Positions 11,568-64,000 of a DNA stretch of 64,000 nt are shown here, piece after piece. Source of the DNA: a virus (Duplodnaviria; Heunggongvirae; Uroviricota; Caudoviricetes); IMG/VR virus record IMGVR_UViG_3300025861_000004; one strand, written 5' to 3'. The notes below the pieces were generated by a model. That model saw only the letters and a list, made by a program, of their open reading frames with translations. It had not been told where the DNA came from and ran no database searches. Position 1 is the first letter of the stretch, and each line of letters starts with the position of its first letter. The translations under genes were made by a program, and so were the position numbers.

Positions 11568-11691
11568 AGGGTACGTAGGCGTGCCCGTTCCTTCGCGCTC
11601 AGGGCCACGTATCCTCCCACTAGAGGGGGCGCGAAGAGCACGGTGCGATATCCTCAGCTCGTCCCGAACCTTAACCTTCACCAGAGGGCGC

Positions 11692-12612
11692 ATGAACCCA
11701 TCCATCACCGAAGACCCCATCTTGCTTGAGATCCTTGAGAAACACCTGGCGGGCTGTCACCCCGAGGAGGGGGGTTGTCTCCTCAACCTCCTGAAGTGCG
11801 CGGCCGTGTCGGCCTCGGAGCTCCTACAGGTGCTGGTGAGCAGCATCCGCGAGTCGAGCCTCCCCCTCCACACGGACTACCTCATCGCGAGGCTACTGGA
11901 CTTCTCCGCCGACGATGCCATGGGCCAGGTCATCTGGCAGATGGAGGAGGCGAGCCCGCGCGAGCTCTGCCACCTGCTGCACGCGGCCCAGGTCGTGTAC
12001 CGCGAGGCGGACGCGCGGACGCGCATGGAGCTCGACGAGGACGTCTCGAAGGTCTTGCGGAAGCACGGGAAGTCGGACGACGTGACCGTGCGCCGCGCCG
12101 TCGCGGGGTTGGCGCTCGATGTCATCGAGCACGCGGAGTCGGACGCGAAGGAGATGCGGGATGAGCTCGCCGGCCTCGGTGCGCAGGAGGCTGTACAGGT
12201 CGTTCCGAAGATCGTTCAGGCGGACCTGGCGGAGGTGCTCGATGCGCTCAGGAACGATGCGGACCTCCTGGTGCGCATCGCCATCACCTCCTCGCGCACG
12301 CTGCTGCGCGACATGGACCTCCGGCGATCCCTCTTGAGCATCGTCGCGCAGTCCCCGGACGCGGTGGGTCCTGACGTCTGGGTGGCAGCCCTCCACCGCG
12401 TCATGCAGTCGGGCTCCATCGACAAGAAGCTCCTGGACCTGGCGACCCCGCACCTCCCCAGCCCGCACGTCAAGGTGGCGACGGCGGTCGCGTACCTCCT
12501 CGTCTTCGCGGAGACGCACATCGAATCTCTCGTGGACGACTTCGAGGCGCTCAGCTCCGGTCCGTGCGACTCTCCGACTTGCCGGAAGCATGGCACGCAC
12601 CTCCCTTCCTGA
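11692..12612 (+). CDS. hypothetical alpha-helical repeat protein
   Basis: ATG at 11692 lies 25 nt downstream of the motif TCAGCTCGTCCCG (11654-11666). The ORF track extends it to 11497. Confidence 0.5.
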   Translation: MNPSITEDPILLEILEKHLAGCHPEEGGCLLNLLKCAAVSASELLQVLVSSIRESSLPLHTDYLIARLLDFSADDAMGQVIWQMEEASPRELCHLLHAAQVVYREADARTRMELDEDVSKVLRKHGKSDDVTVRRAVAGLALDVIEHAESDAKEMRDELAGLGAQEAVQVVPKIVQADLAEVLDALRNDADLLVRIAITSSRTLLRDMDLRRSLLSIVAQSPDAVGPDVWVAALHRVMQSGSIDKKLLDLATPHLPSPHVKVATAVAYLLVFAETHIESLVDDFEALSSGPCDSPTCRKHGTHLPS

Positions 12613-15600
12613 GCAGAAGACCTTCCGCCCCTACCAGGCCGACCTGCTCCGCGACCTCACGTCGTACCTCGGGCAGAGCTCTGAGGTGGTCCTCTCGGCC
12701 CCTACGGGGGCGGGCAAGACCCTCATCCTCCAGGGGCTCGTCACCAACATCGTGAACCCCAAGGATCCGGTCCCCAACCGGTTCAAGGGCGCGGTCGTAG
12801 CTGTTCCGCAGATACAGATCGAGGACGGATTCTCGGTGGAGGAGTTCGACAGGGAGGTTACCTTCCAACCTGAGGAGGGGGACATGCTCCATTCGTGTCC
12901 CCTCGTCATCCGCACGACTGACTGGGTCAAGGGGCGGGACCGAGAGCACGAGGGGAAGACGTGCAAGAAGTTCCTCCTGCACCTCAAATCTCCCCGAGTC
13001 AAGGCGATGATCACCACGCACCAGGCGATCTCCCTGTGGTTCACCCAGCACATCAAGACCTGGCCCTCTTCCTTGAAGGATCGGCTCCTCGTCATCGACG
13101 AGTCCCACCTGGCGGGACAGGACAACAAGCTCGGTCAGGTCGCTAAGCTGTGGGTGGAGCGGGGTGGCAAGGTGGTCTACGCGACCGCGACCCCCTGGCG
13201 TACCGACGGCCGTCTCGTGGCCCCCGACAACAACTTCTGGGCCGTCCGCACGCTCGCGGAGCACATCGACGGGGGTGAGTACGCTCCCGGCAAGCTAGAC
13301 GTCCGCACCCACCTCACGTGCCTGCGGGCCGAGACGGCCGCCCAGGTGGCGGGGGATCGGCTCGGCCGGGGAGACACGGAGGCGTCGTGCGCGGACACCG
13401 TGCGTTTGTGGGATGAGGACGGTCGTCCCAAGGCCGTCATCAACGTCCCCCTAGACGCCTGCTCCCGCGAGTGGGCGCAGGCGCTTGTGAAGGCGTTCCA
13501 GGCCCTGCCAAACCCGCCGCGCGTCCACAACGCGGTCGGTACAGATCTTGAGGTGGGGCAAGCGCTTCAGGTCGCTCTGCGGGAGGAGCGGGGTGTCAAG
13601 CGGTTCAAGGACTCGAAGGTCGACGTGTTCATCGCGTGCCGGCGGTTCGAGCTCGGGACCGACTGGCCGCTCTGCTCGCACGTCTACAACATCGGTCTCA
13701 CGTCGTCCTTCTCCCGCATCCTCCAGATGCTCGGTCGGGCACTCCGCAACAAGAATGAGATCGAGGACTACCCCGAGCGGTATCGGGGCCTCGCCCGCTT
13801 CACCTTCCTCATCGCGCGGTCCTCGAAGGCCGTCTGGGCCGACTACTTTCTGCGTCACACGGACCACAGCTACCTCCTGGCGATCTTCATGCAGGACCGT
13901 AAGACGGGCCAGACACTTCTGCGCGAGGTGTCCAGGGAGCTCGGAGGACACGGCCCCCGCCCCGGTAGGCGGGAGACCCGCATTGCCTACCGCAACACCG
14001 TCAGGTCCATCCTCAACCTCCTCCGCATGGACGAGATGGAGACCCGCCACGTCGTCAAGGAAATCGTGCGGGCGGAGATCGAACTGGAGCAGCTAGGGCG
14101 TCCGACCACTAATGACGCCGTCCTCGCCCACCTCACGGACCGGGGGGCCGATCGGAGGACGATCGACGCGGTCGTGCGGTTCTACGGCCACAACGGAAGC
14201 AAGCGGTTCAAGGACGCCGTGGCGCGCGGCATGAAGGCCCTCGCGGAGGGCTGTCCCGCCAGGATCATACGACGGGACCTTCAGGCCGTTTTTGACGCGG
14301 CGATCGAGGAGTTTGGGAAAGACAGGTCGATCGTCAGGGAGGGAGCCTTCCAGCACCTCGCCGAGCTGTCAGGACGCACGGCGATCGAGATCGCCGACCT
14401 CATGCGGTCACGTATCGGTGATCGAGAAAGTCTTTCGCTTGAACTAATAGACAAAGCGATCATCGCTTACGCGAAGGATCACGAGGGTCGCGGTCCTAAC
14501 GTGAAGTCGGGGGACGCAACCACGTATTTTGGGCATAAAAGGACGTGGGTGTCAGTTGATAAGCAACTAGGAGGTCGAGGGTCAAGCTTAGCAAAACGGT
14601 CGATCGAGCTTGGGTTAGAAGTGAGCTCTCAAAACTACGAGCTTACGGACGAGGTTATCGACAAAGCGATCATCGCTTACGCGAAGGATCACGAGGGTCG
14701 CGGTCCTAACGTGAAGTCGGGGGACGCGACTACGTATTTTGGATATAAAAGGACGTGGCTGTCAGTCGCTATTCAACTAGGACGTCGAGGGTCAAGCCTA
14801 CCAAAACGGTCGATCGAGCTTGGGTTAGAAGTGAGATCTCGTAACTACGAGCTTACGGACGAGAGTATTGACAAAGCGATCATCGCTTACGCGAAGGATC
14901 ACGAGGGTCGCGGTCCTAACGTGAAGTCGGGGGACGCGACCACGTATTTTGGATATAAAAGGACGTGGGTGTCAGTTGATAAGCAACTAGGAGGCCGAGG
15001 GTCAAGCCTACCAAAACGGTCGATCGAGCTTGGGTTAGAAGTGAGATCTCGTAACTACGAGCTTACGGACGAGAGTATTGACAAAGCGATCATTGCCTAC
15101 GCGAAGGATCACGAGGGTCGCGGACCTAGCGCAAAGTCGGGGGACGCGACCACGTATTTTGGATATAAAAGGACGTGGATGTCAGTTGATAATCAACTAG
15201 GAGGTCGAGGGTCAAGCCTACCAAAACGGTCGATCGAGCTTGGGTTAGAAGTGAGCTCTCATAACTACGAGCTTACGGACGAGGTTATCGACAAAGCGAT
15301 CATTGCCTACGCGAAGGATCACGAGGGTCGCGGTCCTAACGTGAAGTCGGGGGACGCAACCACGTATTTTGGATATAAAAGGACGTGGGTGTCAGTTGAT
15401 GATCAACTAGGAGGTCGAGGGTCAAGCTTAGCAAAACGGTCGATCGAGCTTGGGTTAGAAGTGAGCTCTCAAAACTACGAGCTTACGGACGAGGTTATCG
15501 ACAAAGCGATCATTGCCTACGCGAAGGATCACGAGGGTCGCGGACCTAACGTAAAGTCGGGGGACGCGACCACGTATTTTGGATATAAAAGGACGTGGGT

Positions 15601-62981: not shown

Positions 62982-63533
62982 TTATCGCCCCAGGGGCTGC
63001 ATGAGCTCGGGTCGGCCGACCGGGTCGATCCCCATGATGAGCAGGCGGATCGCGGCCTGGACGGCGAAGCACTTGTCGCTCCCGTGGACGGTCTGGTACA
63101 GGGTGACCAGGTGCCGAGGGTGGACGACGCGCCACCCTCCTTCGATCTCCCGCACGGGGGGCTCGCCGACGAACAGGTCGATGGTGACGCGGAACGGCTC
63201 GTGCCCGTCCGGCTCGGCGACCCGCTCGTAGCGGTGGAACTCGTACGGGGTCCTGAGGCGCTTGTCGTATCGGGTGGGGACGCGGACGTGGCCGAGCTCC
63301 GCGAGCCGCGCGTAGAGGGCGGCGACGTTGCGCCCCGCCACGAACAGGTCGAGGTCCTTGTGGTCGTGCGCGTGCTTGAGCTCGACGTGCCCGGCCGGCG
63401 ACATGAGGTGCCATGCCCACCCGCCTGACACGATGACCAGGTCGCGGAGCCTGGTGAGGTCTTGGAGGTAGGCGTCGAGGCGGTGCTGCGGCCACGTCTC
63501 GCCGTAGCGGTCCTTGCGGTGCGGGTCTCCCAT
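62982..63533 (-). CDS. hypothetical protein (possible minimal nucleotidyltransferase fold)
   Basis: 183-aa ORF. A minus-strand motif GTCAGCTCCGCGC lies about 25 nt upstream of the ATG. The VSGGWAWHLMSPAGHVELKHAHDHKDLDLFV region is weakly like a pol-beta NTase GS...D.D motif. Confidence 0.4.
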   Translation of the reverse strand: MGDPHRKDRYGETWPQHRLDAYLQDLTRLRDLVIVSGGWAWHLMSPAGHVELKHAHDHKDLDLFVAGRNVAALYARLAELGHVRVPTRYDKRLRTPYEFHRYERVAEPDGHEPFRVTIDLFVGEPPVREIEGGWRVVHPRHLVTLYQTVHGSDKCFAVQAAIRLLIMGIDPVGRPELMQPLGR

Positions 63534-63618
63534 GAGGGAGAGCGCGAGGGGGCGACCCGCGCGGAGCTGACGGCCTGAACTTCAGCTCCGATCCCCCGAG
63601 CGATGCCGACTCCTCGGC

Positions 63619-64000
63619 ATGATCCAGACAAACCAGACCCCAGACACGAGCATCCAGCAACGAGCGATCGAGGCGTTCCGGCAGACCGACTCGATCTACC
63701 AGGCCGCCAACACGGTGGGCGCGACCGTCGCCGAGGTGCGAGAGTGGGCGCGCGAGGCGGGCCTCAAGGTCCCGCACCCTGGCAACCCCAAGCACGAGGC
63801 CCTGCGACCGCAGGCCGAGCGCCTGTTCGACGAGGGGAAGACCCCCGCAGAGGTGGCGGCGGCGATCGGCATCCCGACCGGGACCGTGTGTCGGTGGTCG
63901 CGGGAGCGCGGCCTGTCCTTCACCCCCGACTGGACCAGGCAGCGCGTCGAGGCGATCGCGCTCGTCCGGGGACGCCCCAAGACGGCGAACACCCCTGCCG
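63619..64000 (+). CDS. HTH-repeat DNA-binding protein, 3' truncated at the window edge
   Basis: Motif at 63583-63595 plus 23 nt to the ATG. Two HTH-like segments (TVGATVAEVREWAREAGL and AAAIGIPTGTVCRWSRERGL). Confidence 0.45.
   Translation, partial: MIQTNQTPDTSIQQRAIEAFRQTDSIYQAANTVGATVAEVREWAREAGLKVPHPGNPKHEALRPQAERLFDEGKTPAEVAAAIGIPTGTVCRWSRERGLSFTPDWTRQRVEAIALVRGRPKTANTPA

Follow-up and report, generated by a model that had tools for sequence, protein, structure and literature searches.

The stretch of DNA analysed here (64,000 nt, IMG/VR record IMGVR_UViG_3300025861_000004; hereafter the window) belongs to an uncultured tailed jumbo phage of about 278 kb, in which a short element, referred to as the box and spelled in its core TCAGCTCC, 16 bases, TCGAC, stands at a fixed distance before many start codons. 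By kind this is a known type of system, a phage-specific promoter class yielding leaderless mRNAs, and it is likely from the sequence that the box acts as the promoter that defines leaderless or short-leader transcript starts. Motif, spacing, orientation, conservation pattern and use before RNA genes are read directly in the DNA, and about half of the window genes appear to be made as leaderless mRNAs. The unusual features are the near-universal leaderless output, the density of the box, its use for a transfer-messenger RNA (tmRNA) and a small RNA (sRNA), and a specificity factor that is missing from the screens.

Positions were numbered with the A of the ATG as +1. The string CAGCTC occurs in 82 copies on both strands of the window, and an ATG lies exactly 36 nt 3' of its first C in 34 of these and at 37 nt in five; the offsets 38, 39 and 40 were found once each, and any other offset zero to four times. 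A shuffle test for CAGCTC-N30-ATG gave 0.43 +/- 0.67 expected occurrences (maximum 4 in 100 shuffles) against the 34 found, which bears out the claim of the sequence-only reading, made earlier without database searches, that a motif stands at fixed spacing before 30 or more starts; the start coordinates that it gave were all right, except that 62670 is 62669. Genes were called with a self-trained codon-usage caller blind to upstream sequence, which returned about 103 genes in the window. The box stood at leaderless spacing before 43 of these and before a short leader in 7; about half of the genes had no box, where only a few motif-less genes had been supposed. With small spacing variants allowed, the box carriers in the window were the 43 gene starts, the 7 genes whose short leader holds a Shine-Dalgarno (SD) sequence, and two genes for non-coding RNAs. 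All box-linked ATGs opened open reading frames (ORFs) with a coding pattern of G+C at the three codon positions (GC1/GC2/GC3, about 0.68/0.46/0.88; window 66% G+C), and they were the starts called independently in public assemblies of the same phage (in the L001 gene table: 18646, 19550, 21709, 22146, 22200, 23568, 23925, 24799, 27538, 28616, 30371, 33040 and 34280). The motif is not confined to 11654-63620, as had been thought, but was also found at 3846, 6490 (-) and 7310 (-), and it recurs all through the rest of the genome that was sampled. The sites before start codons were as follows.

3846..3885 (+): box promoter, ATG at +1, gene 3883-4662 (HD_4)
6451..6490 (-): box promoter, G at -37, ATG 6453
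7271..7310 (-): box promoter with TCGACT, ATG 7273
11654..11694 (+): box promoter, ATG at 37 (11692)
12551..12592 (+): box promoter, ATG at 38, helicase gene 12590-15898
18609..18648 (+): box promoter, full TCAGCTCCGATCC, ATG 18646
19513..19552 (+): box promoter with TCGAC, ATG 19550
21707..21746 (-): box promoter with TCGAC, ATG 21709
22144..22183 (-): box promoter, GGGTAGGTT as -10, ATG 22146 (PTH2); crosses the promoter of 22200, ATGs 53 bp apart
22163..22202 (+): box promoter, GGGTATGG as -10, ATG 22200; divergent partner of 22146
23531..23570 (+): box promoter with TCGAC, ATG 23568
23888..23927 (+): box promoter, ATG 23925 (2OG-Fe(II) oxygenase)
24762..24801 (+): box promoter (CAGCTCT) with GCGACT, ATG 24799; near-identical in L133
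25599..25639 (+): box promoter, CGAT at the -10 position, ATG at 37 (25637)
27501..27540 (+): box promoter, ATG 27538
28579..28618 (+): box promoter with CCGAC, ATG 28616 (nicotinate phosphoribosyltransferase, NAPRTase)
30334..30373 (+): box promoter, GGTAGGAT as -10, ATG 30371
33003..33042 (+): box promoter with TCGAC, ATG 33040
34243..34282 (+): box promoter (TTGAC), ATG 34280 (464-aa protein used to find relatives)
35961..36000 (+): box promoter, spacer a palindrome with 13-bp arms, ATG 35998
36664..36704 (+): box promoter, TAGTAT as -10, ATG at 37 (36702)
43843..43886 (-): box CAGCTCG, ATG at 40 (43845); palindromic overlap with its divergent partner
43867..43907 (+): box CAGCTCG, ATG at 37 (43905, RNase H)
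44944..44983 (+): box promoter with TCGACT, ATG 44981
45954..45993 (-): box promoter (TCGAG), ATG 45956 (RNA ligase)
47124..47163 (-): box promoter, ATG 47126 (M23 and NUDIX); back-to-back with the 47201 promoter, boxes 2 bp apart
47164..47203 (+): box promoter, ATG 47201
47685..47724 (+): box promoter with TCGACT, ATG 47722
49113..49152 (-): box promoter, ATG 49115
49493..49532 (+): box promoter with TCGAC, ATG 49530
50179..50218 (+): box promoter CAGCTCCACTTC with CCGACT, ATG 50216
51888..51927 (+): box promoter with TCGAC, ATG 51925
54048..54087 (+): box promoter, ATG 54085
57452..57491 (+): box promoter with GCGACT, ATG 57489
57852..57892 (+): box promoter, CGTC shifted by 1, ATG at 37 (57890, NTPase_I-T)
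59225..59265 (+): box CAGCTCG, GTG at 37 (59263), weak member
59388..59427 (+): box promoter with TCGAC, ATG 59425 (29-codon ORF)
61618..61657 (-): box promoter, GGTACGAT as -10, ATG 61620; inverted-repeat pair with the 61698 promoter, boxes 5 bp apart
61661..61700 (+): box promoter with TCGAC, ATG 61698
62192..62234 (+): box CAGCTCG, CGAC shifted by 4, ATG at 39 (62232), weak member
62632..62671 (+): box promoter with TCGACT, ATG 62669
63531..63570 (-): box promoter, ATG 63533
63582..63621 (+): box promoter with CCGACT, ATG 63619 (226-aa multi-helix-turn-helix protein)

The spacer of the promoter of 35998 (35969-35995, +) is the near-perfect palindrome CTCTATATCGACG-gcaat-CGTCGATATAGAG, which may be an operator for gene-specific control.

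A count matrix was built from 45 sites, in which CAGCTC at -36..-31 was fixed by site selection. The conserved parts of the element were T-37 CAGCTCC-30, T-27 and T-13 CGAC-9, with T-37 in 34 of 45 sites, C-30 in 35, G-29 in 29, T-27 in 23 and C-25 in 28 for the box half, and T-13 in 23, C-12 in 31, G-11 in 31, A-10 in 36, C-9 in 35 and T-8 in 21 for the -10-like half. Positions -24 to -14 were uninformative; nearer to the start, G-2 was found in 24 of 45 sites and C or T at -1 in 44 of 45, followed by the A at +1. The layout is thus AGCTCC at -35..-30, a 17-bp spacer, and CGAC at -12..-9, and where the -10-like element was displaced by 1 nt, at 57853, the ATG was displaced with it. The second CGAC element of the sequence-only reading is confirmed by these counts, and its 13-nt motif holds for T-37 CAGCTCC-30 and T-27; the 'GATCC' half is the commonest version in this genome only and is lost in the relatives described below.

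For scanning, a position weight matrix was restricted to columns -38..-25 and -14..-8, with the start-codon columns left out, and a cut-off of at least 14 bits was used. On 165 kb of phage DNA it found 64 sites (34 of them the window training sites), compared with 1-4 in shuffles, and tabulation of their distances placed an ATG exactly at +1 in 52, within +/-1 in a further 3, and a GTG at +1 in one. The start codon of box genes was ATG in 38 of 38, and other genes often had GTG or TTG, or AAGGAG. SD-like strings were absent from box genes beyond 2 chance-level matches, as the sequence-only reading had held. The box occurs about once per 1.3-2.5 kb, and the intergenic gaps measure only 36-44 nt, so that the promoter occupies the whole gap and adjoins the preceding stop codon. 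Between 44 and 64 kb, promoters of the TTGACA/TATAAT type were not found, nor were intrinsic terminators significantly in excess.

Seven box copies have a short leader in place of an ATG at +1, and in six of these the leader is 11-16 nt long with an SD beginning 0-4 nt from the predicted +1. Two further copies precede RNA genes. These exceptions were as follows.

3261..3323 (+): box with TCGACT, predicted +1 3298, 23-nt leader with GGAG, ATG 3321
5269..5324 (+): box, predicted +1 A 5306 opens ACAAGGAGATCACGTC-ATG (5322)
8600..8651 (-): box, predicted +1 A 8614 opens AAGGTGATTCCC-ATG (8602)
16510..16563 (+): box CAGCTCG, predicted +1 A 16547 opens AAAGGAGCCTGCTC-ATG (16561)
26733..26783 (+): box with CCGACT, predicted +1 A 26770 opens AGGAGACCCCG-ATG (26781)
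27886..27936 (+): box, predicted +1 27923, TCGGAGGATGG-ATG (27934)
50758..50809 (+): box, predicted +1 50795/6, CACGGAGGAACC-ATG (50807)
55974..56383 (+): tmRNA promoter, box TCAGCTCC 55974-55981, GGGTAGACT 55995-56003, predicted +1 A 56011
44750..44944 (+): sRNA promoter, box with TCGAT, no ORF, predicted +1 A 44787

The genes at 36702, 16561 and 27934 had been taken as motif-less genes with SD sites, but 36702 has a box with the ATG at 37, and in the other two the box lies 36 nt upstream of the first base of the short SD leader. In the tmRNA gene, where there is no start codon at +1, the predicted start A 56011 lies 13 nt 5' of the mature tmRNA (56024-56383); the encoded tag reads ANDNSVRLAA. 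In the other case, base pairing begins at A 44787, the 5' end of a putative sRNA of about 158 nt that is structured and conserved (44787-44944, +; minimum free energy -65.8 kcal/mol, z = -3.07). Its 8-bp terminal stem pairs nt 1-8 with nt 145-152, shows two compensatory changes in the orthologues (L133 14578-14732; L134 14807-14962), and is followed by a U-tract that adjoins the next box. No Rfam family matched this RNA at gathering score. The ATG, the SD leaders, the tmRNA precursor and the sRNA stem thus all begin at the predicted +1.

Divergent gene pairs carry boxes that cross or stand back-to-back, with distances between the two ATGs of 53 bp (22146/22200), 59 bp (43845/43905), 74 bp (47126/47201), 77 bp (61620/61698) and 85 bp (63533/63619). 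At such distances there is no room for other promoters upstream of the box, and a leader containing the box would need a promoter inside the unconserved spacer or the coding region of the partner. The use of the box in register before the tmRNA and sRNA, its place before SD leaders at the predicted +1, and the tight divergent pairs argue for a DNA promoter over a translation signal.

These observations bear on the proposal that the box acts in RNA, either as an element of the 5' untranslated region for a translation factor, as the sequence-only reading had considered, or as an endonuclease site at which polycistronic RNA is cut 36 nt downstream into leaderless mRNAs. The box adjoins the previous stop codon and is hence certainly transcribed by read-through, its distance to the AUG is fixed, and genes for RNA repair and processing are plentiful in this phage (RtcB, four RNA ligases, Tpt1, PTH2, CCA-adding enzyme). 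However, no upstream transcript would hold the boxes of the divergent pairs, the box also precedes the untranslated tmRNA and sRNA, the layout is that of -35/-10 geometry, and the motif is not complementary to the anti-SD. Across orthologous pairs no conserved RNA pairing was found along the element, the spacer being free to vary. An RNA role is therefore considered extremely unlikely.

Conservation was assessed in two relatives, L133 (67% protein identity) and L134 (75%), which were found via the 464-aa phage protein encoded at 34280. In 20 orthologous promoter pairs between the window and L133/L134, identity was at least 0.9 at -37..-30 and -27, 0.7-0.9 at -13..-9, and 0.2-0.65 elsewhere, including the spacer; box, CGAC and spacing are thus kept in both relatives, and the spacer drifts. 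This pattern indicates that the one seen in the 45 sites is no artefact of site choice. L133 alone has 20 CAGCTC sites with an ATG at +36 in 21 kb, and the gene-specific deviation of the box before 50216 is kept there. Beyond these relatives, multi-copy box matches in an IMG/VR motif scan came from this phage only. A metagenome scan with CAGCTCCGATCC-N23/24-CATG gave single chance matches only, and a viral scan with TCAGCTCCGNT-N25/26-CATG gave chance matches, in both cases among the matches listed; a literature search for the motif string found nothing.

The box is not the single element-wide expression code that it had been taken for, but one of at least two, since a second start-associated class had been missed. 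This class, (G)GGTAnnn before coding ATGs, has the T of GGTA at -11 (22 sites), -12 (10) or -13 (6), with a total of 38 sites in approximately 175 kb and a background of 1-3 per offset. It serves replication and structural genes, among them those for DNA polymerase, SNF2 helicase, baseplate J and the proteins of 1556 and 2068 aa, and also a methylase gene, and it looks like a host sigma-A extended -10 element ((G)GGTAnnnT) placed for leaderless starts. At 8 sites, including the tmRNA promoter, it occurs together with the box. A sigma-B/F-type reading of GGGTA was rejected, there being no GTTT-type -35 alongside. Sites of this class include the following.

59517-59534: GGTA site, window
55636-55650 (-): GGTA site, window
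55639-55656: GGTA site, window
49470-49484 (-): GGTA site, window
25319-25335: GGTA site, window
22910-22926: GGTA site, window
7832-7848 (-): GGTA site, window
2609-2624 (-): GGTA site, window
L344 14968-14985 (-): GGTA site before DNA polymerase A
L206 3425-3446: GGTA site
L199 8300-8320 (-): GGTA site

The host is probably a member of Myxococcota, as suggested by the likeness of an insertion sequence (IS) element in the window to copies in that lineage and by the homologues of an RNA ligase. The IS element (40451-42840, with a DDE_Tnp_1 transposase) has 94% DNA identity to a copy in a Myxococcales metagenome-assembled genome (MAG) and 68-80% protein identity to copies in Kofleriaceae MAGs, and the closest named cellular homologues of one phage RNA ligase are from Kofleriaceae, Myxococcales, Myxococcus and Hyalangium. 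The element lies inside a variable stretch at about 36-43 kb, where contigs of other samples end or differ and where several XRE-type helix-turn-helix (HTH) genes are located. In Kofleriaceae/Myxococcales loci, TTGACA-N17-TAnnnT-N6-ATG and TAnnnT-N6-ATG starts were found beside SD-led genes, which points to canonical sigma-A and leaderless genes in the lineage, and no box was found in about 87 kb of these loci. Leaderless expression would thus be common to the phage and its presumed host, the box being specific to the phage; a reading of the box as the housekeeping -35 element of the host was discarded. In the MAG loci a TAnnnT hexamer lies 5-7 nt before the starts of the IS transposase genes and of several chromosomal genes, in some cases with TTGACA 17 bp upstream (L139 2857, L141 2884, L143 2884, L144 2848, L140 5669, L141 930, L353 3998 (-) and L354 6049 (-)), and leaderless genes may be common in the Kofleriaceae/Myxococcales lineage.

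In the proposed mechanism, T-37CAGCTCC-30 with T-27 would stand in for the -35 hexamer (AGCTCC at -35..-30), and CGAC(T) at -12..-8, after the 17-bp spacer, for the -10 element. RNA synthesis would begin on a purine 8 nt past CGAC; about 85% of copies have the A of the ATG there, and the product would be an mRNA with neither 5' leader nor SD, translated by 70S ribosomes from its 5'-terminal AUG; the presumed myxobacterial host lineage also appears to translate leaderless mRNAs. Genes downstream of a box gene that have no box of their own possess ordinary AAGGAG ribosome sites, and the presence of such sites indicates that the host ribosomes do use SD. The reader would most likely be the host core RNA polymerase, guided to the box by a dedicated specificity factor encoded by phage or host.

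The layout is that of the sigma-70 family, with two conserved elements near -35 and -10 and a spacer of 17 bp (16-18 bp in that family), and the -10 half is of the CGT/CGAC type of extracytoplasmic function (ECF) sigma factors (C-12 G-11 A-10 C-9 in 31-36 of 45 sites). The fixed distance of the element, the absence of SD and the strong ATG preference fit a leaderless organisation, and the suggestion that with such geometry transcripts would begin at or beside the start codon is supported at the level of sequence. An alternative sigma-like protein is the best guess for the factor, given the sequence specificity of both halves and the ECF-like 'CGAC' of the -10 half. That half has a conserved sequence of its own, with neither the first nor the last T of the sigma-A hexamer, and a dedicated sigma-like reader, phage- or host-encoded, is therefore slightly favoured.

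The search for this factor covered about 215 of the roughly 278 kb, made up of the window itself, the 20-kb flank on either side and about 110 kb from IMG/VR loci. The latter were reached by walking along viral contigs of 125, 98.8 and 82.5 kb, three pieces of this phage from outside the window that the IMG/VR motif scan had identified. Pfam was run on 10+10+61+70+10+7+24 proteins, and precomputed Pfam results were used for two more 10-kb flanks. PHROGs comparison of candidates and large orphan proteins gave no sigma or polymerase match, and sequence searches against PDB for a sigma factor or RNA polymerase were negative. Single-sequence AlphaFold models of two candidates were too poor for a fold search (mean predicted local distance difference test, pLDDT, of 46 for 2639-3187 (-) and 56 for 7311-7832 (-)); the product of 2639-3187 (-) was rejected as a sigma factor, its model showing beta strands and no sigma-like character. 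Two paralogous multi-HTH DNA-binding proteins (phrog_664) were found, one of 173 aa (7311-7832, -) and one of 226 aa (63619-64000, +, continuing in L129 9235-9915, -). The former lies behind a host-type GGGTACGTT promoter (GGGTAnnn) and the latter behind a box, and both are candidate regulators of the box class.

Several points weigh against the promoter reading with its dedicated sigma-like factor. The screens gave no Pfam match (E<=0.01) to Sigma70_r2/r4 or RNA polymerase domains in the sampled DNA, and six-frame translations of about 195 kb contained no DFDGD motif. The ECF sigma factor or single-subunit polymerase for which the sequence-only reading proposed to search the rest of the genome was therefore not encountered in the part screened; its ECF-like architecture matches in the 17-bp spacer and the CGAC -10, and 'ECF-type' stays an analogy. 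The factor may be non-canonical or host-encoded. The -35-like half TCAGCTCC does not have the 'AAC' typical of ECF promoters, and 8 box copies have a host-type GGGTAnnn -10 in place of CGAC. The transcription start at +1 is inferred from sequence only. C at -1 is weak evidence for it because SD-led genes share this base (16 of 24), and a pyrimidine at -1 was dropped as a specific start-site signature. Three sequences, of which two are almost identical, underlie the sRNA covariation.

The 8 copies with GGGTAnnn mean that the box could be an activator site working with host sigma-A. A phage-encoded activator bound near -31 would then replace the -35 and recruit the host sigma-A holoenzyme, by sigma appropriation of the T4 MotA/AsiA type or as a class II activator, with CGAC serving as a weak -10. 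The 13-bp box, spanning -37..-25, resembles a MotA box in position, the 8 copies, including the tmRNA promoter, hold GGGTAnnn in the same register, the conserved A at -10 is common to both promoter classes, and no sigma gene was found, yet two phrog_664 paralogues are present, that at 7311-7832 (-) under a host-type promoter. The -10 half, on the other hand, is CGAC, and GGTAnnn occurs in only 8 copies; it has its own consensus, T-13 C-12 G-11 A-10 C-9, without the hexamer-end T's that sigma-A needs, and this consensus is kept in the relatives, which speaks for a reader dedicated to the -10 half. In T4 middle promoters a good TAnnnT is retained, and the Pfam screens showed neither MotA nor AsiA domains. 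Such an activator is accordingly regarded as unlikely.

A phage-encoded RNA polymerase, either single-subunit (T7/N4-like, as the sequence-only reading had entertained) or multi-subunit (phiKZ-like), was also considered, given a jumbo phage of at least 270 kb, about 60 kb of phage DNA beyond the sampled part, and large proteins of 1331, 2068, 740 and 672 aa with no family match. T7-type promoters have a contiguous conserved block at -17..+6. Those of the phiKZ and AR9 polymerases have short start-proximal motifs (PMC5312081, PMC8244752), and their transcripts carry leaders of 26-491 nt and mostly 31-40 nt, respectively. Conservation here is bipartite (-37..-27 and -13..-9), with -24..-14 and -7..-2 unconserved, and matches neither arrangement; the predicted transcripts are leaderless and those of phiKZ and AR9 leadered; and the searches described above were negative, for polymerase domains in about 215 kb and for DFDGD in about 195 kb. 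This explanation is very unlikely. It is possible, although doubtful, that the reader lies outside the known sigma-70 repertoire. It would then be encoded among the jumbo-phage orphans, either as a protein that resembles a sigma factor in function or retargets the polymerase but shows no detectable homology, or as a polymerase that went unrecognised. Such a reader would impose the rule 'one promoter, one leaderless ORF' as an obligatory expression code on at least 100 genes, the tmRNA and the sRNA, orthogonal to the host TTGACA/TAnnnT promoters.

The assignment of the source to a tailed jumbo phage rests on baseplate J, tail-like and amidase-bearing proteins and replication genes, and metagenome contigs from activated sludge or digesters, reaching 273-278 kb in length, carry exact copies of window proteins. 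Among the products of the DNA added by walking are baseplate J, an amidase-bearing protein of 1556 aa, a tail-like protein of 2068 aa, family A DNA polymerase and DnaB, as well as an SNF2 helicase, RtcB, Tpt1 and a CCA-adding enzyme. Window genes include those for a helicase, NAPRTase, an SPFH protein, a NUDIX+M23 protein, RNA ligase, PTH2, DNA methylases and the IS transposase, and the RNA genes are those for the tmRNA and for a tRNA-Ile whose anticodon, AAT, is unusual (7896-7971, -). No match was obtained by megablast of 20 kb against GenBank phages, and tblastn with the NAPRTase gave distant matches only, below 36% identity.

The set for RNA repair and translation rescue is unusually rich, comprising PTH2, at least four RNA ligases, RtcB, Tpt1/KptA, a CCA-adding enzyme and tmRNA (RNA-repair genes at 21748-22146 (-), 45255-45956 (-), L129 95-1138 (-), L345 16942-19430, L344 1992-2393 (-) and L190 3308-4615), which suggests counter-defence against host tRNA and mRNA nucleases. 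The 3' part of the helicase gene 12590-15898 contains a 210-bp tandem repeat (14450-15860, +; 6.7 copies, 94% matches, G+C 0.55), equivalent to 70-aa protein repeats, at which assemblies break; the product measures 752-1102 aa across samples. At L351 12703-17919 (-), a gene for a 1738-aa DUF6094 methyltransferase/helicase has Hint and LAGLIDADG matches (intein), and in another sample the same gene is split into 1410-aa and 341-aa products.

The box provides an exact, machine-readable start-site code for an uncultured jumbo phage, which fixes about half of the window gene starts, reveals the non-coding RNA at 44787-44944, and predicts the missing transcription specificity factor. If confirmed, it would represent large-scale leaderless, essentially monocistronic expression in a phage of Myxococcota, a phylum whose leaderless translation has received little study. 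With its two short boxes and an ATG, the promoter of 40 bp would be a compact orthogonal expression part.

Among known systems, the T4 middle promoters combine a MotA box at -30 with a sigma-70 TAnnnT -10 and give normal leaders. They are alike in having a phage-specific box in the -35 place before many non-structural genes, whereas the -10 here is CGAC in most copies and MotA/AsiA homologues were not detected. Phage sigma factors, such as SPO1 gp28 and gp33/34, define bespoke -35/-10 pairs for temporal gene classes. In the ECF family, the Bacillus subtilis sigma-X promoter reads AAC-N16/17-CGAC, with CGAC as the -10 element (PMC5758882). ECF and phage-sigma promoters share with the box the bipartite form, a 16-17-bp spacer, a CGAC -10, information-rich halves and a start, for the box a predicted one, about 7-8 nt past the -10; they differ in that TCAGCTCC has no 'AAC', that no protein with sigma-70 regions 2/4 was found in the screened DNA, and that the transcripts here are predicted to be almost all leaderless.

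The start-associated sequence (SAS) of cluster K mycobacteriophages, GGGATAGGAGCCC, lies 3-7 bp from the start codon, contains the SD core (AGGAG) and occurs in 11-19 copies per genome (PMC3203893). SAS and its extended form (ESAS) resemble the box as a 13-bp asymmetric, one-orientation repeat at gene starts in the non-structural part of the genome, with a strong ATG preference, absence from the host genome and an upstream stop codon that often adjoins. The box, in contrast, ends 24 nt upstream, has no SD, is accompanied by a second element at -12..-9, also precedes RNA genes, occurs once per 1.3-2.5 kb and is unrelated in sequence; the sequence-only reading was thus right to set it apart from SAS, which it does not match in position, SD content or sequence.

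The middle and late promoters of the Thermus phage phiYS40 reportedly give leaderless transcripts. Together with the '-10 adjacent to ORF' expression of Deinococcus-Thermus (PMC12340547), they are the closest functional parallel. In both cases a large phage has promoter elements at a fixed short distance from start codons and many transcripts that are leaderless, here by prediction, and the host lineage also uses, or here appears to use, leaderless mRNAs. The phiYS40 promoters, however, are of the host sigma-A type (-10-like, with no novel -35 box), whereas here a GGGTAnnn class coexists with a class made of an unrelated upstream box and a CGAC -10, and the presumed host belongs to Myxococcota and not to Deinococcus-Thermus.

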